From contig NW_003314329.1 of assembly GCF_000143415.4 (NCBI RefSeq), positions 205,421 through 269,420 of the forward strand: 64,000 nt of DNA. Reading direction: 5' to 3'. This document shows positions 15,398 to 63,643 of the stretch, piece by piece. Under the pieces are notes generated by a model. That model did not search any database and was not told where the DNA came from. It was given only the letters and a program-made list of their open reading frames with translations. Made by a program: the position numbers and the translations under genes. The stretch is from Selaginella moellendorffii. Lineage: Eukaryota > Plantae > Lycopodiophyta. The stretch's first letter is position 1; each line of letters begins with the position of its first letter.

Positions 15398-18300
15398 ATG
15401 TACAAACACAAACCAGACCCAATCAAGATCCGGGAAAGAGATCTTCGACAAAAGAATCGAGAAGTGAAAAAGGAAGGGATAGAAAAAGAGAAATTAGAAC
15501 AACAACAACAACAAATTTTAGAAACGATATTAGAGAAGTACGACAAGGAGGATAAAGAAATTCAAGTTGCCGAGTCGAGCAACCCAGTCAAAGATAACAA
15601 AGAACTAAATATCGAAGACGCCCCAGAGTTTGAGGCATTTGAAGAAGCAGAATATATAGCACCAAAGTTTTACTCAAATCCAGACTCACCAGAACAACAA
15701 TTTCACCAACAAAGACTACAACTTCAAATGGCAATCATCAATCCAGCGACAGCCATAGGGAACATGATTTCCTATCCCATTTTTACTGGTGGAAAAACCG
15801 AAGATGCAAACCAACATCTTAAACAATTTGATCAAATTGTAAAGATGAACAAACAGGAAATGCATCGGGAAATACTTTTCCCATATACACTTAAGGGAAA
15901 AGCACTCGATTGGCATAATACAGTCGATGATGCTTTGACCCATGATGAAAAGGTCACACAATTCAAGGAGCAATTCCAGACTGGTGGAACTCCAGAAGAA
16001 CACTATGAGATCATCAAAAACTTCAAGCAAAAATCATGTGAAGGAATTCAAGATTACACTCGAAGATTTAAGTTTCATGCAAAGTGTTGCAAGGATTTGA
16101 TAACAGATAAAGGAAAGAGCTTATCCTATATCCAAGGACTAAAAGAAATCTATAGAAACATGGTAGCAATTGCTGCTGCAATAGAGAATCCAGATGATGA
16201 AAGTGTTGATACACTCTCCAAAGAAATCCTCACATTGGAAAAGAGATTCAAGCAATTCACAAAAGCTATACCTTCACAAACCGATGACGGTTCAGATGAT
16301 GAAGAAGAGGAAGAAATACGCATTAAGACAAAGAAGAAAACACCAAAAGACCAAGACTTGAAGGATATAATCAGGAAAATCTCACAAACCGAACTCAAAG
16401 CAGGAGTGTGGTGTACAAAGTGTAAAAACGAGGGACATACATATTCGGAATGCAAATTACAGCTTTCAAAGTGTCAAATTTGTGAAAGAGAAGGCCATAC
16501 AGCCAAGAAATGCCGATACAGGAATACAATGGAAGTTTCAAGAATCGAGAATGCTCCTCGACAAGAGCCCAATCCTCAATATCAAGGAAACTGGAATCAA
16601 AACGCGTGACCACCACGAAATCAACCTCCAAGATATAACAATTATTATCAACGTGATGATAATTTGTATAGTCAAAGACAAAACTATTACCAGCGAGGCA
16701 ATAACAACTACAATAGAATACCCCCTCAAGATCAAAGACCAAACAACTATACTGGAAATTATGGAAGAAACTACAATACATATCAGCAACGTGATGGACC
16801 TCAGGACAACTATCAACGTCCTCCCCCACGAAATTACAATTATGATCAAGAACCATATCGGAATTATAATCAAAGACCACCCCAGGCTCAAGGTTACAAT
16901 TACAACCAGCAACCTGCACTGCAGCAAGATAATCATCCTCAACAACCTTACCAAAATGCAAATCGCGAAAATAACCAAGGAGTAAACAATCAGGCTCTGA
17001 GGCCAAGACCACCAGCAGCACGGAATGTTGAGGTGGAAATTGACGAACAACAAACTTTTGAAGAACCAACAATACGAACTATCATGAGACAACAATACAA
17101 GTATCAGCAACCAAATAATCTGGAAGAACAAGATTACAATGATGAAGTTGAAATTATCCCAAAAACCGAATGGAAGAAAAGCAAGAAAATACTACAAGCA
17201 ATTCAGGCTGAATTGCAGGAACAAGAACCACAGGTCATTGAAGACCATGACAAACCATCCAACGATCATCAAACAACAAGTTTCTCTGAAGAAGAGCACA
17301 CCTCACTTGCAGAACAAATACTGCAACACGGAATCACATTAACCTTACAACAAATACTTCAAATAGCACCACATCTTAAGAGCCAAATACTAAAGATTTG
17401 TTGTCCACAAATTCCTGATGCTCGCACTCAAGAAAAGCAATTTCCATCTAAAACTGAGAAAGAGGATAACGTAAAAATCCAACCTGGAGATTACGATGAT
17501 AATATACCTTGTATTGACCTCAACATAGGCAAGAATCAAATCAATGGAGCAATACTCGATGGAGGCTCAGGCGTGAATATCATCGAGCATGGTATATGTA
17601 AAGCAATGGGACTTGGACCTATACAACCTACTCCCTTCAATGTCCACATGGCAGACCAACATGTTGTAAGACCAGCTGGCATAATAAGAGATATCACCAT
17701 TGGAATCAAAGGACACAAGTTCAAGATCAACTTCGTGGTATTAAAAATGCCAATTGAAGAATCCTCTTACGAACTCTTGCTTGGAAGACCATGGCTAAAC
17801 AAAGCAGTTTATGCTCAATATTGGATGGACCATGAAATTTGTATACAATCAAACAAAGGACAAACAAAAATAACTACAACTACGACCAGGAAAATTCCGA
17901 AAAGATTTCAACCAATTCAAGCCCAATAATACAATTGGCAAGAAGGCTTGGACGACCTTGAAGAAGCCAAACTCCTTGAAGCTTACCTAGAGCTACGAGC
18001 TTTTCAAGAAATCGATTTACATCATGTACTACCAGTAGTGGCTCAAGACAAGCACCACGACTTAAACTCGATGGACCAACCACTCTACTCTACAAAGCTA
18101 CACGCTCAAAATCAACAAAGATTAAAGATAAAACAACAAAACGAGAAGCCAACTCTCAAGCCTGAACAATTACAATCTAAAGAATACAACATTCGGATTG
18201 ATGATAATCCAGCCCTACAATTTGGAAATGACAACTTTACACCCCGAATTAACCTCAATGAAGAAACTGAAGAACTCAATCTTGGACTTCAAGAAGATCC

Positions 18301-21236
18301 ACACAACATACTCATCGCTACAAATCTTGACAAAAACTTCAAGATAAAAGCTCAACAATTACTCATAACCTACAAGGACGTTTTCGCATGGTCATACAAA
18401 GATCTCAAGGGAATACCCCCGGAACTATGTACACATCGCATAGAGTTACTACCAGGAACACGACCAATTAAGCAAACAGCTTATTGCATGAATCCAAACT
18501 TTGCTGATAAAGTCAAAACAGAACTCAACAAACTACAAAATGCTGGGTTCATTTACCCCATCAAGAATGCACAATGGTTGTCACCATTGGTTATCGTTCC
18601 GAAAAAGAACGGCAAATTGCACATTTGTGTCAATTACAAAAAGTTGAACGATGTGACGGAAAAAGACTCTTTTCCTATACCATTCTCAGACGAGATACTT
18701 GACGCAGTTGCAGGACATGAGATGTACTCGTTCCTGGATGGATTTTCAAGATATAATCAAGTTCATATAGCGCCAGAAGATCAATACAAGACTGCCTTCA
18801 TAAGTCTATGGGGTGCATATGCATACTCCAGAATGCCATTCGGATTAACGAATGCACCATTTACTTTTCAAAGGATAATTACCGACACATTTCAAGAATA
18901 CTTGACTGATTTTATGTGCGTCTTCATGGATGACTTCAGCGTTTTTGGAGCAAAAGAAAAACACCTTGAACACTTAGAAAAGTGTTTCATTAAATGTCGA
19001 CAAAACCGAGTTGCACTTAATCCAGAAAAGTGTATTTTCTTTGTCAAATCAGAAATACTCCTTGGCCATGTCGTTTGTAAAGACGGAATTCTCATTGACA
19101 AAGCAAAAACAGAGGTCATCGTCAAAATGACTCCACCCATGGATTTAATGAGTTTGAGAAGATTTCTTGGAAAAATGGGTTACCATAGACGTTTTATTCA
19201 AGACTATGCAACGATTGCTAAACCACTCACTGAGCTACTTAAGAAATCTCAAGTTTATGCATGGACACAAGATTGCCAACTGGCCTTTGACACACTTAAG
19301 GATAAGCTTACAAAAGCCCCCATACTGGTTCAACCAGACTGGACACAGGAATTCATTGTACAAGTAGATGCATTTGATTATGCACTTGGAGCTATACTTT
19401 GCCAGCGAAAAACAGATAATAGAGACCATCCCATATACTACACAAGCCGCAGACTCTCCCCACCAGAGATGAACTATACAACCACGGAAAAAGAGGCATT
19501 AGGAATGGTCTATGCACTCACCAAATTTCGACATTACCTCCTTTCAAAAAAAGTCAAGATCATGGTTGATCACCAAGCACTCTTACACTTACTCAACAAG
19601 ACAATACTCACTAGAAGAATTGCACGATGGTTTCTTCTACTTCAAGAATTCAACTTTGAGATTATTCACAAGCCAGGCAAACAACATACGCAAGCTGATC
19701 ATCTTAGTCGACTTGTCACGGGAGGACAAGTCACGAAATCCAACGATGACTTACCTGATTCACACCTTTTTAAGGTCACAACTCAAGGAATGCTCCAGGA
19801 TATTTACAAATTCTTGACGACAACCAAGATCCCCAATCACTACTTCACAAAGAATCAAAGGAAACAATTCGTCTTGAGGACACGACGATATTCAGTCGTG
19901 GGAGGCAAACTATATAAGCTTGGACATGACAACATCTTGAGAAGATGCATAGAATCACAAGAAGAGATTAAGGATCTACTCGATGAAGCTCATGCAGGAT
20001 GATCGGGAGGTCATTTTGCCGAAGAAATTACGGCCAGGAAAGTGTTACAAGCTAGATTATGGTGGCTGACACTCTGGAAAGACGCCACTCAGCATTGTCA
20101 AGAATGTGACATATGTCAAAGAACAAAGTTTCCACCGAGGAAACAAACTCAACAACAGCATTGGAACCTTCCAGCATTGGGGACTTGATTTTGTTGGACC
20201 TATAGCAAAAAGTAGCAAAGGCAATCAATACATTTTGGTTGCTACCGACTACATGACAAAATGGGCAGAAGCTCTCCCACTAAAGAAAGCCATAGCGAAA
20301 AATACAGCCAAGTTTCTCTACGAAACAGTTATAACACGATATGGATTACCACGGGAAATTGTTACAGATCGAGGAACACATTTTCTGAATGAGACCATCG
20401 ACATTCTCGTTAAAGAATTTATCATCAACCATAAGAAGTCAACACCATATTACCCCTAGGGTAATGGACAAGCAGAATCAACAAACAAAATGCTTAAAAA
20501 CATACTCAAGAAAATAGTCAAGACAAACCTTAAGGATTGGGATGAAAGAATTTATGATGCTCTTTGGGCATACAGAACAGCCAACAAAGTTTCAACAAAT
20601 TCTACACCTTTCAAGCTTGTTTATGGCCTTGAAGCATTAACACCACTAGAGTACACAATACCATCCTTGAGAATGGCCATTGAACTTGAAATTAATCAAG
20701 AAGAATCGATCAAGAAAAGACTCGCGATGCTTGAGAAACTCGATGAAGAAAGACTAAGTGCAATATGGACAATTGAAGCAATACAAGCTAGAAGAAAAGC
20801 TTATCACGATCGCAAACAGGTCAAGAAAAACAAAGCACATTACAAAGTAGGAGATCTTGTATTATGGTATTGTGGCAATGTGGATAAACTTGGAGGAAAA
20901 CTCGTTCATCAATGGGAAGGACCATTCAAGATTTCGAGTATACAAATCCCAGGAACAGCAAAACTTGCAACTTTAGATGATCAAAAACTGCAAGTAGTTA
21001 ACTTGAACAAATTGAAGATTTACAAGCAACCACAAGTGCTTCACACTATGGTGGAATACCAGAAATTTCAAAAGAAAGCGTTTAGAGAAATCAACGAAAA
21101 CACATTTGAATGCATGCAAACACTTAAAAAAAAAATTGCCTCAACAAGAATGGGACCTAACCCTAATCTTGGCGGTTGTGAGAGGAAAAGAGTTCCGGGA
21201 TCAGGAAAAAGGGAGCCCACTAGGGGCAAACAGTGA
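15398..21236 (+). pseudogene. Gypsy gag-pol polyprotein, disrupted
   Basis: Two CCHC knuckles (CTKCKNEGHTYSEC, CQICEREGHTAKKC), protease ILDGGSG, RT FMDDF, RNase H VQVDAFDYALGAIL, integrase HHCC zinc finger and WGLDFVGP/TDRGTHF core. In-frame stops at 16607, 17927, 20000 and 20457, and a frameshift near 20130-20160. Confidence 0.93.
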
Positions 21237-34223: not shown

Positions 34224-35434
34224 TGTAAGCAACTAAATTTTTTCCATTCTACTTTAGTCACTTAACCACACCTCCGACCACTTGGAGGAGTCTCATTCAC
34301 AACCTCCATAAGTCCCACTTAGGACTTGGGGCTTGCTAGCCCCGAGAATGGCATTCGTGCCACTCAACCTTTGCACTCAGTCCCAATGCTCCACGTGTCC
34401 GATCCCATGACCGACACCCTAAGGCACCACCAACATACCAGCCTGTTACGCTAGGCCATGCCCAATCGCCTTGGTTACATCAGTGGTCCAACAACACTTG
34501 CATTGCAATCCCATCTCTCCAAGACTGGGCTATCCGTCCATGAGTGGTCATCCCAGATCCACTCCTTAGCATCCTTAAGATGCCTGCAGACATGGGGAAT
34601 AGCCTTCCCCAATATCTCCTTTCTGGTCCCCACCAAGTCCCTTTCTGTCTTTGGCCGTGTTCGCAGCCACTGCCACTAGATCAGGGCCCACAGGCCTGAC
34701 CACTAAGTCCCACGGTCCTCTAGGACTTCCTCACCACACGACTGTATCCTTGGTCACTACACCAGAGGACTACTCCTCTTCCTTTCCACAGTCTGGGCCT
34801 TTGGGACAACATTTCGGAAGACTGTGGCCTTACGCAAGCCTTGTGGGTACTCTCCCCGCCTTCCGCCTTTGGGTGCTCTAGCCATGGGCTTAGAGCGAGG
34901 TTCTGTTAAGCCACACTAGGTATCCAAGTAGGTAGTGCCACCCACGGTCTCACTCGTCAGTCCGTATTCACTCTAGTCTTGGACTTCCCAGTGGTCAGAT
35001 CATCACCCAACACTGGGTCTGGCCTTCTTGGGCCAAATTCGCCTTTCCTGGCCAAACTGGCTCCACTGCAATCCTCCCCCTACTATACTTTTGGAGCTCA
35101 CCAAACCCCCCAAGGTCTGGGAGATGAACGCTTTGGGCTTTCACCCTCTTGGACTTGGACTCGGACTCAGACTCAGACTCGGACTCGGACTCGGGCTCGG
35201 ACTCGGGCTCGGGCTTGGTCTCGGCCTCAGCCTCGGTCTCGGTCTCGGTCCCGGTCTCAGTCCCGGTCTCGGTCTCAACCTCGGACTCCATCTCGGGTCC
35301 TTCTCGGACTCCATCTCAGATTCCATCTCGGACTCCATCTCAGACTCCATCTCGGGTCCATCTCGGACTCCATCTCGGGTCCATCTCGGACTCCATCTCG
35401 GTCCATCTCGGACTCCATCTCGGACTCCACCTTG
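34224..35434 (-). mobile_element. Family A LTR, truncated at the DNA transposon TIR
   Basis: Begins TGTAAGCAACTAA and ends inside the 12-bp array at the left TIR. Confidence 0.87.
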
Positions 35435-35455
35435 AAGCTCTATTTCGTTAAAGTG
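35435..35455 (+). repeat. Left terminal inverted repeat
   Basis: AAGCTCTATTTCGTTAAAGTG, the exact reverse complement of 47743-47763. Confidence 0.95.
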
Positions 35456-36050
35456 AGATTTATTCAGTAAAATGGGACTAGGTACAAATTTTCAAGTATT
35501 TGAAAATGACGTGAAATTATATGTTTTTTGTCCAGGGGCTAGACATATCTGGGGCATGGTGACTAGCGCGGTGACTTTGTGTCCAGACTGAGTCCATCTG
35601 GTTGTATAATAAATCTCATTGTCAAGGTGAACAAGCCGAATCTGAAGCTAAAGAAAAGCGATGGCATGCGCGCACACACTATTTGTTTGTTCATTGAGCG
35701 TGTGGTGAGCTTTCCAAGATGAACGTCATTCCTATTAGCCAGACATATAACTTAATGGTGAGAACATTTAGATATTATTCAATGTTATCTTTTTCTAACG
35801 AATCTAATTGTGAAGGTGTAGCAAGAGGCATTGCTAGTCTGGAGAAGTCATTTAACTCATTTGACCCTTAGTGTATTTTCATGAAACTAAATAACATTCA
35901 TATTATTAAGGAATTTCTCTAGTACCTTTTTTTTACGACATAGAGGCTTGCATTTCTTTCAAAGGTGATTTAGTAAAAGGCCTGAGGGCATATGCCATTC
36001 TATTTCTCAGACCGGTATTAAGATATACTAGTGCAAAGGGCCACATGCCA

Positions 36051-39000
36051 TCACGCCTCCTCTGATTCAGATTCAGATTGTTCACCTTGAAATAAAATAC
36101 ATTAGAAACTTAGTAAAGGAATATTAATGAATCTCACCTTGAACCCGGGTTATGAATGCTCTTGCTGCATCTCTTGCATGGTCTGGCAAGGTGATGGTGG
36201 CACTCTACTTCCGCATCCAACCATGCACAACATTATCCACCGATATGCTCATGCTGGGATCCCTTGGATTCAGCACCCATCTCTTTTCTAGGCAATCCTT
36301 CGTATATCCGGAACTTGGCTTGAACCACTCCACAGTTACATTGAAGGAGTTAGTTTCCGCGTCCTCCTCTGCATCAGTGATGTAGCGCCCCACCCATATC
36401 ATTTGTTTTTTATTACTGGGTCTGACAAGCACGACCATTCCTTTGCAGACCTGTACTGGATTGAATGCTGAATCCGGCTTCTTGTTCCTCGGCCCACAAT
36501 AGTGATCCTCAACATCGTTATCTGTCACTGCATTTCCAGAGGACATTGTTCCGCTACTATCTGGTGCTCTGGGTTCTGGCCAAAAGGACTCTTCCAATTC
36601 TTCATATACAACCGGCCCATTTTGGATAGCAGATATAATCTTCTCCCAGTATTCGAGCAAAGGCTTGCACCTCTTAAAATAGGATTCTCCACCAAACACC
36701 AACCCCCTCTTCCAGAAGGCAATATGCTGTCTAATCCCGGCCACTATACTTTCCTGGTCTTTGAGTCCATCCGGGTGCATCGGCCGTGGGGAACCCTGAG
36801 GAATCATAGGTTCCCCAGTTATGGGATCTCTCTTGAAGAGTTCAATGCCATCCACTGGCAGCCACACTGTGTCCCATTCTCTCATCTTGTACCTCATCAC
36901 TGGAGCACCGTCACGCATGCTGAAATGAAACTGAAGAGGCTTGGAGTGGCCAATCAGCGTTTTGGATCCGTCCCTGATGTAGCCTCTTACAAACCCCTTA
37001 AAGTCTGGAACCTCTGTCACAAGTGCAGCTTCAACAGTGCCTTTGATGCAATTTTGGAATTCATCGTAGAGTTGTGGGAGGGTGAGGACATTGGATCGCC
37101 GGAGGGACTCTGCCAGGTGACTGAACATGGCATCGACGTCTTCATGAGTGTGCCCAACCATGAGAAAGCCAAGTGTAACCGTTTCAAATATGCCTTTGGC
37201 AACAAGCATCGCTAAGTACGCGAAGACGTACATGTTTTTGTTCTCACTGCCAGCATTGTCTGTTTGGAGCAGAAGATGGGGTGGAAGGCCACATCGGCCG
37301 CAAGAACTTCCTTGAGATTCTGCTTCGTTTGGATGAGGCTGTGCATTCACCGGGCGACCAGCCTCGTCGGAATGGCATGAGGCCTCACGTGATAACCCTA
37401 CAATCTGACGGCCAACATATTCACTGGGATGGCATGGGGCCCCACGCGATACTGCAAGCCTTTGCTCCTCCTCCAGCTGAACCCTGTATGGGGTTCGATC
37501 GACAAGGGCCTTATGCAAGGGTTGGCCGTTCAGCTCAGTCTGCGCACTTTGCAGAGACCTTAAGTGTTTTGCTAGGGACGCAATCATCATGTTTGCACCC
37601 CCGCCACCCCATAGAGGTACAAAGAAGTTCCCATAGTTCTGGGCACCATGCCCATGAGCGATTATGCCAAACAGAGACACAGGCAGCTACATGGATGAAG
37701 AGATTGCCTTGGGGGCAGGATTGAGTCGAGGTAAGCACATCTTTTTCTGGTCCATTTTGTCGTGGATGATGCAGAGGTAAGAGTCAGGTCTCTCCATGGA
37801 GAGAATCCTCTTATGATAATATGCAGTCCTGCAGCTTCTCTACTCGATGTTGTGGTCGAGCCGCTTTCTAACCAACGTCTCTCGCTCTTGAGCGCTGCAA
37901 GAATTCTTCGACAAAGCCATTTTGATAGCAGTGCACTCGTCACACTTTGAAAAGCTGGAGTACTTTCCTATACTCACATCCCTGAACCTGTTGCTCCACA
38001 ATCTACTAAATCTAGATTGGCTCAGCTTCCTGTAGCCATTACTCTGGAGTTCCCGATTCACATCTTCCAATATGGCCCCCTTGGTATACATGGAAGGGAG
38101 AACTCGTTGGGTGTCTTGTGTTCCATCTTCCAAGAGGCGGGTTTTATGTGGTTGCTGCTCGCTACATGTCTCGACAAACCTCTTGAAGATTGCCTCTCCA
38201 TATACAACATGACCCCTGGTTTTGTGCGTACCGTCGTTCCCATGGACTGCCTGTTGAACCCTTTGTTCCTCGAACTCAGTTTTGATTCTGTAGAATGTGC
38301 TTCGAGGGACTCCATAAATGATTCTCCATGCCTTCATGCAGACCAAACCCCTCTGGAAGACCATGCCCCCCACCTGATGTTCTGAAGCATCAACAGATGA
38401 CCGTAATGCCTCATACACAAAATTGCGAGCTGCCTTCCAGAACAATGTCTTGTATCTTGCTCTCTCCTCTTCAATAGCATCCCAATCAGCATGTTGACAG
38501 CACCTCCTCTTGCAACAAGCAACTGTCGAGACCATTCGAACCTCCATCGCCATTTTCTGCCTTTTCAGTTCGTTGCTCAGATCCCTTTGGCTGCGCTGTA
38601 GGAAGGTGTACTTTCTTTTCCCATGAAGAGATGTTCTGTCATCAGTTGTAGTGGTGTTTGATTGTGAATCCTTCACATTCTCAAACACTAAATGCCTCAA
38701 TTTCCACCGCACAATGCTTCCAATAGTCAGACTGTTTTCTTCTGTGTCAACAACCTCTAAAATCACAACTCCAATATCATCCCAGCCCAATTCTTGATTA
38801 GCAACCGCATCTCTTGGATCGACAACTGTGGCTAAGCCCTCAGCTACCACCTCCCCCTCGGGGTTGTTTAGAAACACCTTTGCCTGAATCCATGTAGCAC
38901 GGTTTTTAAGATCCACGGAGGGAACATGCGTCGCACTTGCGCTGTCCCCAACATCTGCTTTCTTCTGCAGATTTTTCAAGGCAACAACAACATTTACCCC

Positions 39001-39192
39001 GACGACCATCTCTCCTCGTTCAATAGCGACCACATTCCCATCGAAGACAGTCTCTACTGATACAGCAGCATTGCCTTCCCCAAGCCTTTGACAGTGTATA
39101 ACAAAGTTCCGATCCATAGACACAAGGGTCTCTTTTGCAACTCTCTTCCCACCATTCAAAATGTAAACCTTTTCCCCAACCCTGAAGGCCAT
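36051..39192 (-). pseudogene. DDD-type transposase, about 1030 aa when read through, with three premature TAG codons
   Basis: One frame from ATG 39192 through TAGs at 37840, 37687 and 36205. A short terminal intron leads to GEQSESESEEA and TGA at 36051. Motifs: CCKRRCC, FSKCDEC, IIHDKMDQ, LLLQTDNAGSENKN, GFLMVGHTHEDVDAMFS. Putative 5' UTR intron at 39194-39494. Confidence 0.88.
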
Positions 39193-40448
39193 TCTGAAAG
39201 TGCAGAAAAGAAGTTAAGACCATACAAAAAATGATTGGAGAATGGCCTAAATCATAACATACCAAATAGCATGAGGCCACATGCCATTATTCAAACATGC
39301 TATTGACACCCACATGAAATTTCGCATTCACAAAATTGGCATGAGGCCTCATGCCATCTTGATATACACACAGCTGCAGGCAAGTAAAAACATACATGAC
39401 AATACGCTAGCCATGAAATTGCAAGGGCCCAAGATGGCATGTGGCCTCATGCCATTTCTAAATGTGGTCCTAAACCATTCCATGGTGAACATACCAGGAA
39501 GCACAAGTGCCGAATATCAAGAGGAAGCGGTAGCCACACCAAAGACAGTGTCGCTCGCAACACCGCAACTGCTCGTAGCGCCGCTCACACAAACTGCCAC
39601 TCGCATAAACTGCCGCTCGCAATGGCGCTCGCAATGCCGCAACCGCTTGTAAACGCATAAACCACAGCTCACAACGCCGCTTACACAAGCAGCGCTCACT
39701 GCGCTCAGCAGAACCAAGAACACGGCGCACAAAAATGATAGACCTAGGAATGAGTTCGAGAATTCAAAAATAACACACGCTTGAACATCACATCAAATCC
39801 TCTGACAAACCAGATCTTATGATTCCTCTGACAAATTTCAAACTGAGTAGCTTCTAGACTTTGCTGTCGGAGGTTGAACTTTGTCACATCATGTCCTTGC
39901 CTCGATCCAGCTGTGCCATGTCAGTGATTCGAACTTTGCCATGCCATGTCAGTGATCCGCACCAAGATTATTCGCCGTGTAAAGGAATAATTATGCTGTG
40001 TGTGTACGTCCATTTATGGCAATATAAGGCCATATGCCATTCAAAGAATAATGCTAGTCGAGCATTTTTTGGTGCATTTTTGGGTTCAAAATTGCATGAG
40101 CCCACACGCTATAAAGTTTACCTGTACCAAAAATAGAAACAGCTTTATTTACTTGGGAATTTAAGTGGTTGAGGCATTTTTAAACTTACAAACACATGCC
40201 CTACTTACATTCATTTGGTTGCTTAAAATTCAAAAATATTATAAACCTTTCTTTTTGCATTTTCAATGTTTTCAATTATGGTTTTTGATTTTCGCAGGAC
40301 CAACCTAGTAATCTATTTGCATCCTGTCATGTTTATAGCTAGCTTTTGTTTGTCCCCTTCGCTAGCCTGAGATACATCTGCTCGGCATCTGCCTCTTACA
40401 GCATTTGCCCAGAAAGGGCATCTTTCTTCACGCAGCATTTGCCACATG

Positions 40449-40473
40449 TTTAGGGTTAGGGTTTAGGGTTTAG
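40449..40473 (+). promoter_or_regulatory. Telobox-like (TTTAGGG)n tract between the divergent transposon genes
   Basis: TTTAGGGTTAGGGTTTAGGGTTTAG. Confidence 0.55.
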
Positions 40474-41725
40474 CAATTCAGTAGCTTGATAAACATGCAA
40501 ATACAAAACTTGATGCAAAATCCTTTGATATGTCACAATGCCCCTAGGACCATAAACACATTTCAATAGAGAGGGTCCTTTCATTTCATAACTCCTTACG
40601 TAGATCTTGGTGAAACCAGAGTTAGTGAAGTTGGTTTCTTGTGATCCCGCATCTGATTGTGATGTCCCTTTGCAGTGTCGATAGAAAGGTCAATGCACAC
40701 CAAACTGTAGAATCTTGGAGCAAAATAACGGTCGGATCTATGGCAAATGCCCCTGAAACATTGTAAGGCTCGTGTGGTCTCATGTTGTGTCCGATCGAGA
40801 TGCTTCTTTGCAGGGTCATCAAGAAGGACATTGTATACCATTCTGTAAAATCTAGTTGCGATCTAACGGTTGGATCTCCAGGAAACTCAAAACAATCTCG
40901 CGCATGTCAGAATATTCTAGGAATATACTCCTATGTGCTCCTGAAAATGGCATGCAGCCCCACGCCATTCAAGAGATAACGCCAGATGACGCCGAGCATT
41001 TTTTGGTGCATTTTTTGGGATCAAAATTGCATGAGCCCACACGCTTGAACGTCACATCAAATCCTCTGACAATTTATTTAGCTGAACATCTGGCATTTTT
41101 GGAAATACAAGATGCTTTGGAATATCCAATCATGCATGGTATAAATATAGCGAGGGTATTAAATGATATCCCAATCATGATCTTTCTTTTGGATTTCGCA
41201 TGCATGCAGTCCGAGGAATGATGACGTTGCGGATTTCTTTTGGATTTCACGCATGCGCACGCCGATCCAGAAATTAATGGTGGCGCCCAAGTCCGAGGAA
41301 TGATGACGTGGTGGGATTACCAACCGTCGTGACATTTCGCACGTGTGAGGTTAGGTTTTGCATTTTGCTTCGTACTCGCGCTCGCACACTCGCGCTCGCA
41401 TCGCACTCCCACTCGCGCTCCCACTTCTCTACAGGTTTCTCGTGTGCATCAGCGTCCACTCGCGCTTGCATCACACTCGCGCTCGCATCGCGCTCGCATC
41501 ACGCTCGTGTGCATCAGCATCCACTTCAAGACACACCCAGTTTGTAACTTCGCTGCCAACTCCGCCGCCCACTCCGCCACCCACACGCAGCCCATTGGCG
41601 TCCCGGGAGATTTCAGTGCCACTCTCCAACTGTAAGTGGCAGAGTAGCCTTGCTGCTACGATCCGCTGCACACACAATGCACATTCGCTAGCGAGTCCGG
41701 TTGTCACGCCTCCATTCGGCTTCAA

Positions 41726-44700
41726 ATGGTAAGTCTTTTAGGCCAAGTAGAAAATGGCATGAGGCCACATGCCATTCAGTAGCAACATTGGCATGCACCG
41801 ATTGGGCTCTCGAGTGCAGTCCGGTTACAGATCGCGTGTAGCCTCACGCCATCTTAGGATGCAGCCTCAAGACATCTGATGCAGTGGTGAATGGCGTGTG
41901 GCCTCATGTTATTTCCAGTTGCTAGCTTTTCTTCTATCAGCTCTAATTGTTGTGCATTTCTGAACAGGCGAGGAATTGCGTTCTTCTTCCAGCCACTGTC
42001 AATGTGGATGCAGAGAAGGGGGAGGAGCTCACCAGTTGGACTTTCGGGATGGAAGGCGAGGATCTGAGGCTGTACAACACAGATGGTGGGAGAAAAGAAT
42101 GCATGGGGATCCTCATCCAAGTGACAGACACTCCATGCAGTTCCATGCAAGAATATGGACTGGCACTTGTGGTAGAGATAGCGTCTGCCTTCAAGATCCA
42201 CCTTGCACATCCTAGTGGCTTCCCGGAGGGGGGCAGCGGCTATGAGGAATTCCTAGAGGGAGCTAGGGAGAGGTTTTCCAGGAGGCCCACAATTTCAAAG
42301 ACGCTGTGGGTCTATGAAGATCACATGGAATCCACGGACCTCACCTACAGCGATGTTCAAAAACTATATTCCAACATTGAGCCGTTGAGAGTGCCTCCAG
42401 TTCGCGAAGCGAAGGGGAAGGGGGTCGATCTGGAAACTACCCCAAAGCAGAAAAGGGTGGTCAAGCTCAAGCCGATGTCCGACTCTCCTCCAAAAAAGAA
42501 GCTACTCGGTGATGCCATTGCCTCGGGTTCGAACACTACACCCACCAAAAAGAAGAGCTGCAAAGAGCAGAAAGAGCAAGAAGAGGCAGCAAAAATCGTC
42601 GCAGATAATAGTACTTGTTACTATTCCAACAAAGTATATACAATCGACGTGAGCCGTATCGACATCCAAAGCAAATACAACCACAGGCTAGTATCTGATG
42701 AGTGGGTGGAGAAACTGAAGCAGAAGATGCTGGCAAGTCCAGTAACACCCGACATCGCAGACGTGATCCCCTACTACCGAACAATGAAGGGCGAGACGAG
42801 GTTTCCAGACTTGATCAATAGGAAGGTGTTGGACGATCAGAACATCTGGTTCTATGCCGTCTCCGGGCAGCATTCTAGCTTGGCGATGCAAGAGATAGTT
42901 GTGGATATTATGGTGGGTGAGGAGGTGAAGAAAGTCTTCAAGACAAGAGTTGTCCGCCTGATAAAAGGCAATTCGCCCCTCCGATCTATCATATACATCT
43001 CCCACGCGCAGAATGTCAAGCAAGAAACGTGCTACAAATCGGGTCTGCACGAGACATTGGCACGAACACGGAAGCTCTGGGTTCAACTGAAGAAGCCACA
43101 AAAACCAGGACAAGGACGTGCACTAGCAACTAGCGCCTGGCAGGTAAGCCTCGTTGCATGTGGCATAGCATGTGGCCTCACGCCATTTCCATTGCAGGAA
43201 TTCTCGAGTCTTCTCTCAAAAACACTGGGGGTCAATGACACACTCAGCATCCATAACATTCTACTCGCGACAAAAGTTGTTTTTGACAAATGGGTAGATG
43301 TGCTGAGGAGGTACCATGACAGGGAGTTGCCAAACTCAATGGGTGTGGAGGACGGCCGGAAGCCCAATGATTTGAAGCTCAACGCCTTGCGTTTCTCGCG
43401 GTCTCTAGACGATGACGACCTTCTGACAGTGGCTAATGCTCTTCTACGTGGTGAGGTAGTCTTCAACAAGACCAAAATGACTCCCGGCCATATTGTGACA
43501 TACGAGGACTTGTGCACGACTCTGAGAGCTCGTGCGCTATTGAAGGATTGGATCTTCGAGCAAGTGGCCGTGGAGAGGGTGAGCATCGACACCACGCAAG
43601 AGATGATGGAAGCGCTGGAGTTGTCAAATGAAGACATCGACGAGTACGTGAAGGGGGCCCCCAAGTTCATCGATCTGCTGCGGGATGCCACGAAAAGTAA
43701 AGCTGAGAAGTTGGATCAGTATCCAAATTTCATTAAGATTGATGTCGACCGCCGGCTTCAGAAACAGCTCGACCCCGCAGCAGAGGCCTATCGAGAACCT
43801 TACCGGGTATACTTGAATTCGGATGAGGATCAAAGGTGGAGGAGCATCGTTTCCCACGGAGATGAGCAGGTCAAGAACATATTTTGTGTGATGGACTTCA
43901 CAAATGAGGAGATCACTCATGCAGACGAAGTCAGCTCCATCATTGACTTAATGGTGGGACTTACGGAGGTGGAATCTTCAGTCCACTATATGATCTACGA
44001 CTCCGAATCCTATCACAAGTTCTGGAAGGCCTTGAACGAGGTGAAGGCTCGGTTGAAAGGCAAGGAGATGCGGGAGATCCATGGGATAATGGCTAAGAAG
44101 AAGATACCGACGAATGTCCGCATCTTCACACTCGCCCTTGTTATTGGTCCTGCAACAGAGTGGGACTGGAGTGACTTCCCAGCTTCGTTCGACAAGGCCA
44201 ATCGAATTGATCTGAGGGAGGTCAATTTACCCGTGCCTGAGGAACTGAAGACGGCTATGGAGCTTTCGAATCCAAAGAAAGCTCCAGGTGCAGCATGGGA
44301 AATGCTCAGCTGGGTCTTCAACACAATAGCGGGTGGGTCACCTGCTTCCGACTCCAAGGGCAAATGCGTTGTCGAGTACAACTGCGGCAGACTATTCTTT
44401 CGGTGTGTTGCGGTGACAAACTCCATTGAAAAGGTGACTTCAATGGAGCATATAATTACAGTTGCCAAAGAAAAATAGTATCTTCTCTGCGAACCTGGTG
44501 AGTACACACTTTAAGTTTAAATGTTATCTCACAAGCTTTGTATGCAGGAGCGTGGCCACCCCCAAATGCTGAAACGGCATTAACAGCTACTGTTGAAGAT
44601 ACCCATGTTGGACCGAGCTCACAACCTGCACAAGGTAAGGTCACGTGAGGCCTCACACCATTTTGATTATAGATCGTTGTGAATATTCAGACACGAGGAC

Positions 44701-47321
44701 TGAAAAGCGCACTGGTGGCGCGTCGAAGAAGGACAAACAGACAAGCAATAGGAAAAAAGGAGGTACAAATTATATTTGCAATGGCGTGTGGTCTCATGCC
44801 ATTCCTTGCAGGAGACACTTCTTCAAAGGCAAAACAGGCAAGCACCAGCCAAGCTCAAACTGACAGTGGTCATAAAAAGCGAAAGCACGTTGGACAGTCA
44901 TCGAGATCAGAGGCGTTTGATTCAAAAAGGAAGAAGGGCAACGAAAAGATGATAGGTAATGCCTCGTGGTTATGGCGTGTGTGCTCATGCCATTCATTGC
45001 AGATCAAGGGCTGAGTGAAAGCAGGCAGTCACCACCTCCTGACTCAGATTCCTACGGCGGACTCCCCTTCCCCAATCTCAATGGAGAGGTACAATGGATG
45101 AGGGATTCTTTTCAAGTCAGGGCCACGTTTTTCTCATCTCGTCATCTTCGAAGGGTGCAAGAACGTGCAGAAACCATGTTAAGACAGTCGGGTGAGGATA
45201 CGGTCCTAGGTCACGCACTAAAACAGGCTATGGATGTCTTGTATTTTGAGATGGAGACTCGGCCAGATGATTTTCCCAAGATGGTCCTGGAAGAACAAGC
45301 CATCCAGCCTGAGCAGCCTATGGAAGAAATGCAGGAGGGGGATGAGGAGCCAGAGAAAGATAATGAGCAGGAAGAGCAGAAGGACGAAGAGGAGGACAAA
45401 GAAGAGGAGGACGAAGAAGAGGAGGACGAAGAGGACATGGATGGTCCTCACAATGGTGACGATCACAATAACGACGACGACGATGATGACGACGATGGCC
45501 AGCCTGAGGTGGCCAAAGAGCAGCGGAGGAAGGTCATACAAGACAAACCATCAGGTAAATAATAGTACATCCATTCCTAACCTTTTACCATTTCTAACAT
45601 TGTCCATGTAGGTCGCAGAGCAAATGGTAAGTAGAGATTATTCAGTTGAATTTACAAACTCTAGCCTTTAGTGTCGAGGAAGGATAGTGCTAAGCAAGGG
45701 TCGAAACGTATGTCCAATCCTTCAGAATCAGCAGTGCGCCCAAGTGATATCGGTCCTAGTTCCTCAATAGCAGTTGATGGTAAATACAGTATAGTCGATT
45801 CAATGTGCTAATGAGTTTGTTTTTAGTAGCACGGGAGGATACCATCTCAATCGAAGGGAGATATTTGGACATGCATATGGATCCGCCAGTGGACTCTACT
45901 TGCCTGCAAGAGTCATCAGAGCTGGTGGAGGCTACTATCCATATCAACGCCAAGCAAGCTGACCACGCTCCACTTGATGCTACCCATACCACTGAGTCAA
46001 TCTTGTCCACGTATCCAACTGACGGTGACCAGGCGCCATTGGACCCGCATGAGGCCGCCCCAGCCGCCGAGCCGGTCGTATCCTCATTTCCAAAGGACTC
46101 AACGTGTGCCCAATCGTCTGACTATGCGCCATTGGAACCTCCCTACACCGCCCCTGCTGCCTGTTCGGTCATGTCCACTTTGCCAACGGAGGCACCAGCT
46201 GAAATGGCGTGTGATCACACGCCATCGGAACCACCCCATGCCACTGTTGAGCCAGTTGTACCAGAGTCTACAGCTGAAATGGCATGTGCCCACACGCCAT
46301 CGGATGCGATTGACCCCACATTGCAGAGGAGAGTATTTCCACCCTTCACGTTTCCTCGACCAAAACCCTCTCAACGACCATCGGGAGCACCATTCGCTAA
46401 TATTGTAGATGGTAAAATTGACTTGTACCATTTTTTATGCTGACGCATTTCATTTCAGAGTCACGGCGAAGGTACTGTATCATTTTTGATCTGAACGGTG
46501 TCCTTTTCTCCCATGAGCGTGGCTCGTCCTCGAATGTCATTGCACCTTCCAAAGCCTGCGGTCGCAAGTTGGTCAAAAGAGACAGATTCACATTAATCAC
46601 ACAGGAGAAACTGCGGGATCTAATAATGACCATGCGACACTTAAAACAGAGGGCCGGGTTCAATTTGCAATTGGGAGTTTGGACATCCATGATGCGCCAT
46701 AATGCATTAACGTTGCTACAGATGATGCACGATCAGACGCGAGTAATATTACCATTTGACTTTCTCCTAACGCAGGAGGATTGCTTGACTATGGTCCATG
46801 TGAGGGGTAGCAAGCCCATCTTCGTCAAGCCAGAGGCTGTAGTGATGAACCGGAGTGCTAGGTCAAGTGAAATCCTCATCATCGATGACTCGCCGATTAA
46901 AACTGCAGCGAACACGCACACATATGCAGTGCACCCCATCTCTTGCAGTATGGAAACTAGGGAGAAGAAACCGTATGTTCTGGGGGACCTTGCAAAACGG
47001 CTTGGAGCGATGGTGATAGAGAACCGGCCAGTCCAGGAGGTGGCTGCAGAAATCAACCAAATGGCAGATGGAACGGTATATCAGAAGCCATTTGATCGGA
47101 CAAACACCAGTCATCATTTATGGCATATATATTGTCTAGCCAAGCACTATCCGCATCTCCATAATCTGCTCAACCGGATGGGTTCTTCGACCACTGAACA
47201 TGAGCGTGGACGTATTAGAGAAGAGATGGCATTTCTATTGGGTTTAAATCCTGATAGTGTGGAGAGTGATGAAATTCCAAGATTATTGTATAGGCGTTGG
47301 AGGCAAAAAATAACAGTCTGA
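41726..47321 (+). pseudogene. Transposon cargo gene, about 1630 aa: ParB/Srx-like, degenerate DNA-MTase-like, acidic linker, FCP1/NIF HAD phosphatase; one premature TAG
   Basis: GT-AG introns at 41729-41967, 43144-43197, 44498-44547, 44635-44690, 44763-44811, 44956-45002, 45555-45611, 45627-45671, 45780-45826 and 46412-46458 join the ORFs into one frame. The only stop is TAG at 44476. HAD motifs: IIFDLNGVL, GVWTS, IFVKP, LIIDDSP. Confidence 0.78.
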
Positions 47322-47742
47322 GATGGCATGTATTTATTTAAAAATGTAACTTATTATGGCATGGGGTTCCATGCCATTGTATTAATATTAAAAGACAATT
47401 CTTTGAGAGGATTTGCATTATACTAGAAGTGTTACAGCATGTTATTGGAAGTCTACGAAGTTGTTTTATTAATAAGGGGAAAGTAAAGATTGAATGGGGA
47501 CTTGGGCTCCACCTAGACTCGGAGCAACTGAGCCAATATTAAAAGGATGGAAAGAAATTGGACGACGATGACAAGGAGAAGAGAGAGGTGAAGCAGTGGC
47601 AGGGGGAGGAGAAGTGATTGAGTAGACATTTCCTTGTTTAAAATAAAATGGCATGTGCCTCAATGCAGTTGAATTTTGTTATATTTATATACTATATAAA
47701 GGTTTGGAAACCTTATTTTACAAGTGGGATAATGACAATTCC

Positions 47743-47763
47743 CACTTTAACGAAATAGAGCTT
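47743..47763 (-). repeat. Right terminal inverted repeat
   Basis: CACTTTAACGAAATAGAGCTT. Confidence 0.95.
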
Positions 47764-50700
47764 AATCCGGGACCGAGACCGAGTCCGAGTCCGAGTCCGA
47801 ATACTAATATAGGCAGTTGGGTGAAAGCCCAAAGCGATCATCCCCTAGGGGGGGCGGGGGGCTGCGGGTGGTTCCAAAAGTATAGTAGGGAGAGTGTGGG
47901 GGTTGGAGCCCAGTGGAGCCAGTTTGGCCAGGAAAGGCTAGTTTGGCCCAGGAAGGCTAGACCCAGTGTTGGGTGATGAGCTGACCACTGGGAAGTCCAA
48001 GACTAGAGTGAACACGGACTGACAAGCGGAGTAGCTTGGTGAAGTGTTCAAGAGCCGGCTCTAGTTCCCCCGGGAGATCGACTGGCCGATGCTCCCAGTC
48101 CAAGTGTGGGTGGCACTACCTACTTGGATACCAAGCGTGGCTCAACGGAACCTCGCTCTAAGCCCATGGCTAGAGCACCCAAGGGCGGAAGGCGGGGAGA
48201 GTACCCAAGTGGCTCACGTAAGGCCACGGTGTTCCGAAATGTTGTCCCAAAGGCCCAGACTGTGGAAAGGAAGAGGAGCAGTCCTCTGGGGTAGTGACCA
48301 AGGACACAGTCGTGTGGTGAGGAAGTCCCAGAGGACCGTGGGACTTAGTGGTTGAGCCTGTGGGCCTCGATCCAGTGGCAGTGTTGGCAAACATGGCCAG
48401 GGGCAGAAAGGGACTTAGTGGGGACTGACAGAGGGATATTGGGGAAGGCTATTCCCCTTGTCGGTGGGCATCCTAAGGATGCTAAGGAGTAGATCTGAGA
48501 TGACCACTCACGGATGGTTTGCCTAGTCTTGGAGAGCCAAAACTGTGATACAAGTGATATTGGACTACCAGTGTGGCAAACGTGATTGGGCATGGCCTTA
48601 GCGTAACAGGCTGCCATGTCGGTGGTACTTTTGAGTGTCGGTCATGGGATCGGACACATGGGGCACTTGGACCAAGTGCAAATGTTGAGTGGCATGGATG
48701 CCCTTCTTGGGGCTAGCAAGTTCCAAGTCTTGAAATGGACTTATGGAGGTTGTGATTGAGACTCCTCCAAGTGGTCAGAGGTGTGGTTAAGTGACTAAAG
48801 TAGAATGGAAAATTTAGTCGCTTACAATTTGGTATCGGAGCCGTTCCGTAGTCTGACTTTTATTGGTGCTCAAGTATATCACCATTGGATAGAGCCCACA
48901 GCAGAAGATGCTAAAGAGACTTACTAGGGGTGAACACCCTAGTCTTGGCAAAGCAGAGCCTTTGCTATGGAATCAAAAGAATACCTCAAGGAGGGAGGTA
49001 GAGATTCGATGTTGCTTGGTGCAACAATCAACGGATAGGAGAAAAAGATGAGTGGCCAAGATAGGGCCGTGGAATCCCTTGGAAGGAATCCAAGTGACAA
49101 AGTTAGGCGAGGAACACTAATGTGTTGGACGCTAACAAATTGCGGGAAAGGAAGTGTGTTTCCAAGGATGGATTCCGAATTGCTCCGATTTGGCGAAAGT
49201 GAAAGCTCCAAGGGAGGGAGCGGTAAGGTAGCCAAATGATAGGGCCCTGGACAGCCCTAGCACAAAGTATGATAAATAGAACTTAGTGCCCAAGGTGGCA
49301 CGAAATAGAAGAGAGGATGATGGTGCCCTCAAGTAACGAGTTTCCTAGGATGGGGAAGTGGAGTTGCACAATCTGTGCAATGCAAGGTGTTGGAGACACC
49401 TAGGAAATTGACTTCCAAAAGTCAAAAGAGTAAAAGTTCCAAGGTGCAAACGTTCAATAGATGGAAATTGAGACTACTCAAGAAGGAGTAGTGGGATTGA
49501 CTTAGAGAAGGGTTTCTAAGAGGTTTAGCGAGAACTAAACCAATAAAAGGAGAGAACCACTATGTGGTCCAATCAGTCTCTAAGTTGGAGAGACAAGCCT
49601 TTGGTGTCAAACCATTGAGGAATATGCAAAAGGTATGGTGAGCCTTCAATGTCAAACCATTGACAAATATTGGCTAGGTGCCAAGGATGGAAATGGTAAC
49701 GCGGGTGTTACTTTATAAAATGGTTTACCGTTCAATGAGGACATCGAACTTCGTCTATGGGTGGTGGAGTTGTGAGACACAAAATCCCTAGGCCCCAAAG
49801 TGGAGCCGGAAGGGTGCCACGTGGTAGTGGCCGAAGCGAAAGCCAAACGAGCGTAACACGTTTGGACTAAAAGCTCCGACTTGAAAGGTCGAGAGCAGGA
49901 GTGGAACTCCCAACAAAGTGCTTGAGGAATGAGCACGAAGCGAGCCATAAGTGAGGCTCTAGAAAGGGACCCAAAAGAACCAACACATGACACGTGGAAG
50001 TGTCCGAGATAGAGTCCGAGGCGGACCTGAGATGGAGTCCGAGATGGACCCGAAGTGGAGTCCGAGATGGAGTCCGAGATGGAGTCTGAGATGGAGTCCG
50101 AGATGGAGTCCGATATGGAGTCCGAGATGGAGTCCGATATGGAGTCCGAGATGGAGTCCGAGATGGAGTCCGAGATGGAGTCCGATATAGAGTCCAAGAT
50201 GGAGTCCGAGATGGAGTTCGATATGGAGTCCGAGATGGACCGAGATGGAGTCCGAGATGGACCGAGATGGAGTCCGAGATGGACCGAGATGGAGTCTGAG
50301 ATGGACCCGAGGTGGAGTCCGAGATGGAGTTCGAGATGACACCGAGACTGGGACCGAGACCGAGACCGAGTCCGAGTCCGAATCCGGGACCGAGACCGAG
50401 TCTGAGTCCGAGTCCGAATACTAATACAGGCAGTTGGGTGAAAGCCCAAAGCGATCGTCCCCCAGGGGGGGGGGGGGGGGGGGCTTCTTGTGGTTCCAAA
50501 AGTATAGTAGGGAGAGTGTGGGGGTTGGAGCCTAGTGGAGCCAGTTTGGCCAGGAAAGGCCAGTTTGGCCCAGGAAGGCTAAACCCAGTGTTGGGTGATG
50601 AGCTGACCATTGGGAAGTCCAAGACTAAAGTGAACACGGACTGACAAGCGGGGTAGCTTGGTGAAGTGTTCAAGAGCCGGCTCTAGTTCCCCCGGGAGAT

Positions 50701-57717: not shown

Positions 57718-58340
<623 letters not shown>

Positions 58341-62897: not shown

Positions 62898-63260
62898 TCA
62901 GCTGTGCTGGTGGTGTTTGAGCACATCGCGGACCTCGAACGCAGTCCGGCTTTGGACAACAATGTCATACATGTGTGTCGTCTTCAGCTTGGTGAAGTCC
63001 GCCGGCAGCGAGATGAAGTATGGCCCGTTGACGCTGCGAAAGTACTGCCGGCTCTCCTCCGCCTCGGAATCACACCTCTCCCATCCCAGCGCGAAAAGCT
63101 TGTCCTCGAGCAGATCGAAAGACGTGATGACTTCGTTCGTGGCCCGGTACACGAGCTGCTTCTTTGGCGGCTCCCAAGCCTTGAAGTTGTCCAGCGGTTG
63201 CTTCATCGGATTCCGCACAAGCGTGGCCACGCCGTCTCGAAACAGCCACACACCCGACAT
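62898..63260 (-). CDS. FPF1: Flowering-promoting factor 1-like protein
   Basis: Intronless 120 aa: MSGVWLF, NEVITSF, LGWER, ISLPADF, HMYDIVV, FEVRD. Confidence 0.93.
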   Translation of the reverse strand: MSGVWLFRDGVATLVRNPMKQPLDNFKAWEPPKKQLVYRATNEVITSFDLLEDKLFALGWERCDSEAEESRQYFRSVNGPYFISLPADFTKLKTTHMYDIVVQSRTAFEVRDVLKHHQHS

Positions 63261-63643
63261 ACCACCACACTCCCTGGAGAGGAAACGTTAGAGCGCTCAA
63301 GCTTTGCGAAGAAATGAAAAGGAAAGAAGCTGCGAACAGGAGTGAAGTTCTGCGAACCTGAGTCGACCCGCCCCAAGCCGAGACTGCGACTGACAAGGAG
63401 ATCACAAGCGCGAAAAGCAAAGCATTGCTCGGTGACAAAGTCAAGAGAAAAATGATTGCGCGAGCCACTGTAGGCGCCGACTAGTGAGGGAGCGAACGAG
63501 AGGCCGATCCATTTGGAGCCCACGACATCCCAGAAAGGTGACGCATCTCATAATTCCCCCACTCAGCTCGCGGTGCCCCGCTGGTCGGATCCACCAACAG
63601 ATAACTGCTTTGCTCCAAGTACACACGTCCGTACGATGGCCCA

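Follow-up and report, generated by a model that had tools for sequence, protein, structure and literature searches.

Dispersed palindromic sites and a ParB-fold accessory protein in a DUF7869 transposon of Selaginella moellendorffii

Described systems and the 12.3-kb element

The demonstrated cases of transposon accessory proteins that recognize their own elements come mainly from the VANDAL and Spm elements of flowering plants, and for ParB-bearing transposons of algae binding to their own repeats has only been proposed. In Sola1-1_Ec32 of the brown alga Ectocarpus, an accessory gene for a ParB-like protein with an N4C/N6A methylase lies opposite a transposase that in Repbase is matched best by a Sola1 transposase from a moss (Dinatale et al. 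2025, PMC12477816). The element described here resembles it in being a large TIR DNA transposon with a ParB-like gene inside the TIRs on the strand opposite the transposase, and in having termini that start with AA and end with TT. It is 12.3 kb long with a 21-bp TIR, whereas the brown-algal element is 21.5 kb long with a 282-bp TIR; its accessory protein has no detectable methylase and ends in a NIF/HAD-like tail; and it carries internal palindromes, which the text and supplement rows searched do not describe for Sola1-1_Ec32. In red-algal Plavaka (EnSpm) elements, the ParB-like PAG3 gene adjoins inverted-repeat arrays, and self-binding was proposed (Petroll et al. 2025, bioRxiv 10.1101/2025.02.11.637652). 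The best HHpred match of PAG3 is 7BNR, which ranked fourth among the Foldseek matches of the domain described below. The Plavaka transposase belongs to another superfamily, PAG3 has a putative 2OG oxygenase, and its repeats are tandem arrays beside the gene rather than single sites dispersed over introns, promoter and both ends as here. As far as that description goes, inverted repeats thus accompany ParB on an unrelated transposase superfamily.

VANDAL elements are Mutator-type elements, and the present element falls outside VANDAL/VANC, having a DUF7869 transposase, a ParB-fold accessory protein and accessory ORFs without a VANC-family match in Pfam. VANDAL elements pair the VANC accessory protein with family-specific motifs in introns, between genes and in non-coding DNA at the termini (PMC5735166), and resemble this element in motif divergence between families and in spread by local duplication; the VANDAL motifs are 8-9 bp and non-palindromic, in contrast to the 22-bp palindrome here. 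The Spm TnpA and AtMu1 systems likewise have family-specific motifs in clusters, to which a protein encoded by the element binds (binding here is putative), but their binding and hypomethylation are terminal and their motif is non-palindromic (bioRxiv 10.64898/2026.08.24.746577). The termini of the present element, AAGCT rather than CACTA, and its additional internal sites place it outside CACTA/Spm. The bacterial systems ParB-parS, Noc-NBS, KorB and VirB-virS likewise combine a ParB fold with dispersed palindromic sites, and Shigella VirB, which loads at virS and then spreads, acts as an anti-silencer (PMC12704722, PMC10770331); in contrast, the Box II arginine is absent here, no ParA was found, the site is 22 bp and the setting is eukaryotic chromatin. 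Fusions of ParB-type HTH domains to chlorophyte methylases have also been reported (Iyer et al., PMC4738411). No papers on DUF7869 were found, and only two algal papers were relevant in the literature outside subscription journals on ParB with transposons, plants or palindromes. The literature searched contained no report of a land-plant ParB transposon, of sites dispersed over introns or of motifs that diverge from family to family. ParB-accessory transposons were already known from algae, and the land-plant variant with defined sites is new.

The window analysed is a 64,000-nt stretch of the S. moellendorffii genome. The element, a DNA transposon of 12,329 bp (35435-47763), was delimited by its TIR pair and by run contigs. 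The left TIR (35435-35455, forward strand) is 21 bp long and begins with AA, the right TIR (47743-47763, reverse strand) is identical to it, and the element starts with AAGCT and runs AA...TT overall. The insertion lies in Ty3-type LTR sequences. On inspection for a 4-bp duplication, the flanking LTR pieces were in opposite orientation and did not form one target site, and the target-site duplication is therefore unreadable. These pieces (35100-35434 and 47764-48830) both point outward from different breakpoints, which suggests inversion or recombination between two element copies. The element was about 99% identical, at nearly full coverage, to contigs from three runs, and one run contig departed from the window sequence past 47763. 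Two thirds of the element's words were present in very small assemblies, and we read this from the sequence data as a high-copy, young family.

The gene models are predictions based on GT-AG sites, continuity of the reading frame and alignment to homologues. The transposase coding region (36051-39192, reverse strand) has its ATG at 39192 and a predicted last intron at 36062-36137, and matched DUF7869 in Pfam (PF25273, E=6e-42). This copy contains three TAG stops. Homologues numbered 45, and the nearest named ones were from liverworts. We take DUF7869 to be linked to Sola, and the transposase is probably Sola1-like; the AA...TT termini and layout of the element match Sola1-1_Ec32, and the available parts of PMC5751038 give no Pfam family for Sola. 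The divergent accessory gene (41726-47321, forward strand) was predicted as a frame-consistent model of about 1,623-1,635 aa after splicing, with an internal stop at codon 820.

Sequence and placement of the palindrome

The original prediction placed a 22-bp palindrome, ATGGCRTG-N6-CAYGCCAT, at 19 positions in the element, and each of these start positions was exact. Mismatches to the consensus numbered zero at eight of these sites, one at five, two at three, three at one and four at two. Two further sites, at 40091 and 41026, had been overlooked. Perfect matches in the window numbered 8, compared with 0 in 100 dinucleotide shuffles, and with up to three mismatches the window had 21 matches where 0.59 were expected; 19 of the 21 fell within the element. 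A symmetric PWM gave 22 sites of at least 12.6 bits, all within 35661-47669, and the best site in the other 52 kb of the window reached 9.1. The element makes up 19% of the window and holds 28 of its 32 ATGGCRTG half-sites. The spacer, described as fixed at 6 bp and often containing GGCC, proved not to be free: among 44 half-sites, G occupied position 10 in 40 and position 11 in 31. With these two positions specified, the half-site extends to about 11 bp (ATGGCRTGWGG). At the CG/CA position the G-to-A variant occurred in 26 of 44 half-sites and the C-to-T variant in 2 of 44, an asymmetry that appears unlike simple CpG decay. The palindrome has no resemblance to the TIR, and no match to it was found in Rfam.

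Within this element, conservation was 0.84 for the motif and 0.40 for the flank, and the mean best flank identity between sites was 9.4 of 30 (253 pairs). Flanks had been called unrelated, which is correct for most sites but fails for the pairs 46204/46279 and 40091/41026, both of which lie in local duplications. Two deviations from the consensus are private to this copy, the family majority having the consensus base. A copy-level conservation test of 41700-42000, of low power with its 12 substitution and 9 indel rows, placed two rows in motifs, both restoring the consensus; most of the other rows came from one run only and are possibly errors.

Sites at 35661, 35977 and 36030 lie in the left subterminal region 3' of the transposase (35661-36051), and those at 37372 and 37429 in a stretch of transposase coding sequence that varies among homologues (37372-37450). 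The predicted intron 1 of the transposase gene, in the 5' UTR (39194-39494, reverse strand), holds sites at 39266, 39336 and 39434. The intergenic region, or shared promoter (40019-41047), has sites at 40091, 40947 and 41026 and a half site at 40019, in a duplicated block. In the accessory gene, three sites (41754, 41831 and 41891) lie in predicted intron 1 (41729-41967, forward strand), one (43165) in a predicted 54-nt intron (43144-43197, forward strand) whose removal gives a gap-free alignment of the protein to liverwort homologues, and one each (44640, 44781 and 44972) in three predicted phase-1 introns (44635-44672 or 44635-44690, 44763-44811 and 44956-45002, forward strand). Those at 46204 and 46279 are in a 75-bp duplication within a Pro-rich exon (46204-46300), and the right subterminal region (47323-47669) has sites at 47356 and 47648 and a half site at 47323, just past the stop codon. 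Each gene also has a site or half site that starts no more than 2 nt from its predicted stop codon (36030-36053 and 47319-47330). Intron 1 was unspliced in run X20, which may be DNA.

On the predicted gene model, the distribution originally described was confirmed: the first introns of the two genes hold three sites apiece, four short introns (38 or 56, 47, 49 and 54 nt) a single site each, and coding sequence four. Sites lie not only in the subterminal zones but also internally, many of them deep inside the accessory gene. Sites avoid coding sequence, which makes up 65% of the element and holds only 4 of 23 sites (the 22 strong sites and the half site at 40019; P=4e-6), namely the two in the variable transposase stretch and the two in the Pro-rich duplication. 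Of nine short introns in the accessory-gene model, five have no site. In all four motif-bearing short introns the CTCAY of the motif is predicted to lie 15-17 nt upstream of the AG (of the two acceptors in intron 44635, the nearer one is taken), and all five motif-free short introns have a predicted YTNAY 14-18 nt upstream of the AG. From this spacing, the palindrome in the four short introns probably doubles as the predicted branch point. A host histone H3 gene elsewhere in the window (57718-58062, reverse strand) has an in-frame intron of about 57 nt, so very short introns are normal in this genome.

Accessory protein and palindromes of related loci

The accessory protein comprises, in order, an N-terminal region, a ParB/sulfiredoxin (Srx) domain, a helical region, an unassigned region, acidic and Pro-rich tracts, and a NIF/HAD-like C-terminus. 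Structure prediction showed that the domain at 42610-43143 (forward strand) has a ParB/sulfiredoxin fold. An exhaustive phmmer search with 42592-43143 gave 15 distant homologues; word-based searches that started from the accessory protein and from its alignment recovered none. AlphaFold modelled the domain at pLDDT 81.5 with 11 related proteins as alignment, and a single-sequence fold reached pLDDT 30.6. The top Foldseek match was Noc bound to its DNA site (E=4.2e-5), followed by ParB; structural comparison by VIA gave Z 10.0 for PadC and Z 9.2 for KorB, and sulfiredoxin was also among the structural matches. Sequence searches of PDB, NCBIfam and PHROGs found no ParB match for the accessory protein, and no loci with a ParB gene were found in viral or prokaryote collections. 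A weak plasmid tblastn match to the protein was rejected as a primase, and fungal DUF3723, which scored 0.95 in ESM Atlas for the ParB-containing region, was rejected with recognition below threshold.

The GxxR of the canonical ParB CTP clamp was replaced in Box II by SGQHS, and across the homologues an invariant G-Q-H was followed by S, T or L, with no Arg; a CTP clamp is therefore not established for the accessory protein. A conserved region follows the ParB domain; a profile comparison for a central HTH with seven P1-type ParBs was insensitive, missing even the N-domain. Homodimer prediction was uninformative (score 0.01, alignment not used). No ParA family match was found among six long ORFs, and only two genes were modelled in the element. 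ESM Atlas gave no consistent family for the region downstream of the ParB domain. In the liverwort homologue P0059 the downstream region matched PF01555 (N4/N6 methylase) at E=0.085, below the cut-off, and the window protein had no methylase match, no pairwise similarity (z -0.5) and no [DNS]PP[YFW], so an effector activity is unproven. The C-terminus (46422-47321, forward strand) resembles a NIF/FCP1-like HAD domain with DLN instead of DxD (E=1.7e-4, at the cut-off).

Transposase relatives were collected from metagenomes, and the best 80 of 242 were retained. Near relatives (n=47) comprised 39 loci from the tree group that includes the window (94/90, not starred), supplemented by hand with 8 more. 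Of these, 23 had 500 bp or more of DNA upstream of the coding region, and 15 of the 23 had a repeated palindrome of their own in 2-12 copies; at least two copies were also present in 3 of the 24 near relatives whose upstream DNA was shorter and in 4 of the 33 loci classed as distant. Such palindromes arose in 0.4% or less of shuffles, which leave ordinary tandem duplication uncontrolled. Weak cases among the 15 are L032/L033 (identical over the tree segment) and L034, with two distant copies each. The clear palindromes are 22-24 bp long with an even centre and are built like the one in the window while differing from it in sequence. Their arrays are often tandem, and the motif was better kept than the flank even inside tandem units; conservation was 0.86-0.95 for motif and 0.51-0.63 for flank in L002, L003, L017, L028, L047 and L066. 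A recurrent layout was a motif cluster upstream of the transposase, and single copies lay near or inside the transposase in L028, L066 and L078.

Palindrome sequences were entirely different between clades and differed by symmetric 1-2-bp changes between sister families (L014/L017/L031, L019 and L021; L047 and L066; L001/L002 and L004). The symmetric variants TTCCTCTCG, TTCCACTCG and TTCCAGTCG occur in one transposase-tree clade (100/99), and TTACGAACG and TTACGGACG in another (97/92). Motif similarity follows the transposase tree, and the putative HTH recognition helices of the transposase, picked by eye, were nearly unchanged within groups where the motif changes, which points weakly to a reader other than the transposase. 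No ParB gene was found in any of the 80 related loci, most of whose contigs end less than 2 kb from the transposase, or in the 5 kb upstream in L017 and L066; linkage of palindrome and ParB is consequently shown in the window only. Three distant DUF7869 elements have a divergent second ORF (L079 565-1950, L053 118-1596 and L078 1-552, all reverse strand), in which no ParB similarity was found. In the transposases of L059 and L071 the N-terminus is extended by a long stretch that we take to be SET-like in appearance; no Pfam match was found for it in L059.

Candidate readers of the palindrome

The palindromes are confined to families, kept against their flanks and symmetrically changed in all copies, for which an element-encoded dimeric reader is the best explanation, and we regard it as very probable that the palindrome is a selected site for a protein of the element. 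The original prediction of a selected dimeric-protein site is supported by confinement to the element, depletion in coding sequence, better conservation than the flanks and family-specific palindromes in relatives. Its wording, that the pattern reflects selection rather than tandem duplication, was too strong, since two pairs here and many of the relatives' arrays spread by local duplication and were then kept.

The original prediction named no protein; the ParB accessory protein is the probable reader. It is favoured over the transposase because bacterial ParB-fold proteins read such sites, because the site is unlike the TIR, because the putative transposase recognition helices barely change where the motif does, and because the red-algal ParB accessory gene, on an unrelated transposase, adjoins inverted-repeat arrays. 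The absence of a ParB gene from all 80 related loci counts against this explanation. On balance we lean towards a family-specific site that is bound by the element's ParB-fold accessory protein, which would recognize, and probably keep active, its own copies. A ParB dimer would recognize the half-sites of 11 bp in the manner of ParB at parS or VirB at virS. It would load where sites cluster, namely in the first intron of each gene, in the shared promoter and at the two ends, and single sites would punctuate the long second gene. Once loaded, it would act on local chromatin or methylation, and the transposase gene and ParB's own gene would thereby escape silencing. Introns of about 50 nt would tolerate the site in a single position, the one at which its CTCAY core can also serve as the predicted branch point.

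Anti-silencing or activation as the output of ParB at these sites is tentative, and we hold it with slightly less than even confidence. By analogy, anti-silencing would be the likeliest output, because VANC sites share the intron, intergenic and terminal distribution, and because of the parallel with VirB. Among the 174 listed differences between this copy and run X1, 108 were G>A/C>T decay, with A/T in this copy and G/C in the family, the pattern expected from methyl-cytosine decay; such heavy decay indicates that lasting protection was absent and counts against the anti-silencing reading. A far-reaching version, which we consider speculative and unlikely to hold in full, is that land-plant Sola1-like transposons run a eukaryotic ParB-parS system in which a nucleotide-gated clamp loads at family-specific 22-bp palindromes placed in tiny-intron branch points, spreads, and shields the element from host methylation, with specificity switching by symmetric one-base changes. 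The element offers a defined site, a candidate reader and natural specificity variants one or two bases apart, which makes the ParB self-binding proposal directly testable, and it raises the question whether a module that loads and spreads in bacteria can operate on plant chromatin. If so, orthogonal protein-site pairs for targeting epigenetic state would become available.

It is unlikely that the palindromes are instead bound by the N-terminal domain of the transposase, in the manner of TnpA or AtMu1, activating the element or aiding transpososome assembly, with ParB incidental. The transposase is the only gene in every palindrome-bearing locus, its tree is tracked by motif similarity, motif clusters lie both upstream and downstream of its gene, and transposases can act as sequence-specific activators (Sasaki 2026, bioRxiv 10.64898/2026.08.24.746577). 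Such a reader is nevertheless difficult to reconcile with a site unlike the TIR, with near-constant putative recognition helices where the motif changes, and with the Plavaka arrays that adjoin a ParB gene despite a different transposase; moreover, TnpA and AtMu1 targets are terminal as described, whereas many sites here lie deep inside the second gene.

ParB might also read the sites as a repressor or architectural factor, through KorB-like autorepression of two divergent promoters or through end-bridging, which we consider rather improbable. Clustering of sites at both 5' regions and both ends, KorB among the best fold matches, and an accessory protein with no confirmed effector domain would all fit this role. 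However, the spread of sites over introns matches VANC21 binding within introns, between genes and in non-coding DNA at the termini (PMC5735166), and the published algal relatives fuse ParB to predicted DNA-modifying enzymes; a ParB-fold reader that keeps its own copies active remains our preferred reading.

That the motif is an RNA hairpin, a splicing element or a host transcription-factor site is quite improbable. Although it overlaps the predicted branch point in 4/4 short introns, the motif-free introns have an ordinary YTNAY, and although folding is better than in shuffles for two of the four motif introns (z -2.5 and -1.8), for the other two it is not (z 0.45 and -0.25). In transcribed sites, G-U-compatible asymmetry exceeds A-C mismatch by 5 to 2; against pairing as RNA, further sites fall in the intergenic region and outside the gene pair, the putative loop has a specified sequence and in several relatives is fully dyad, and Rfam gave no match. 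A host factor would not follow a sequence that differs by family. An origin of the sites as a neutral consequence of local duplication, or as footprints left by a very small insertion element, would account for the two site pairs in duplicated blocks and the often tandem arrays of relatives, but is largely refuted and very improbable, as most site pairs share no flank, the motif is far better kept than the flank even within tandem units, and no strong site lies outside the element.

Elsewhere in the window, a Ty3-type retrotransposon gag/pol was found at 15398-21236 (forward strand). LTRs are numerous and contain tandem arrays of 12-bp and 6-bp units, and arrays of GAGTCC repeats occur across 1700-53200. 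A 129-aa ORF at 62898-63287 (reverse strand) presumably resembles an FPF1-type plant protein.
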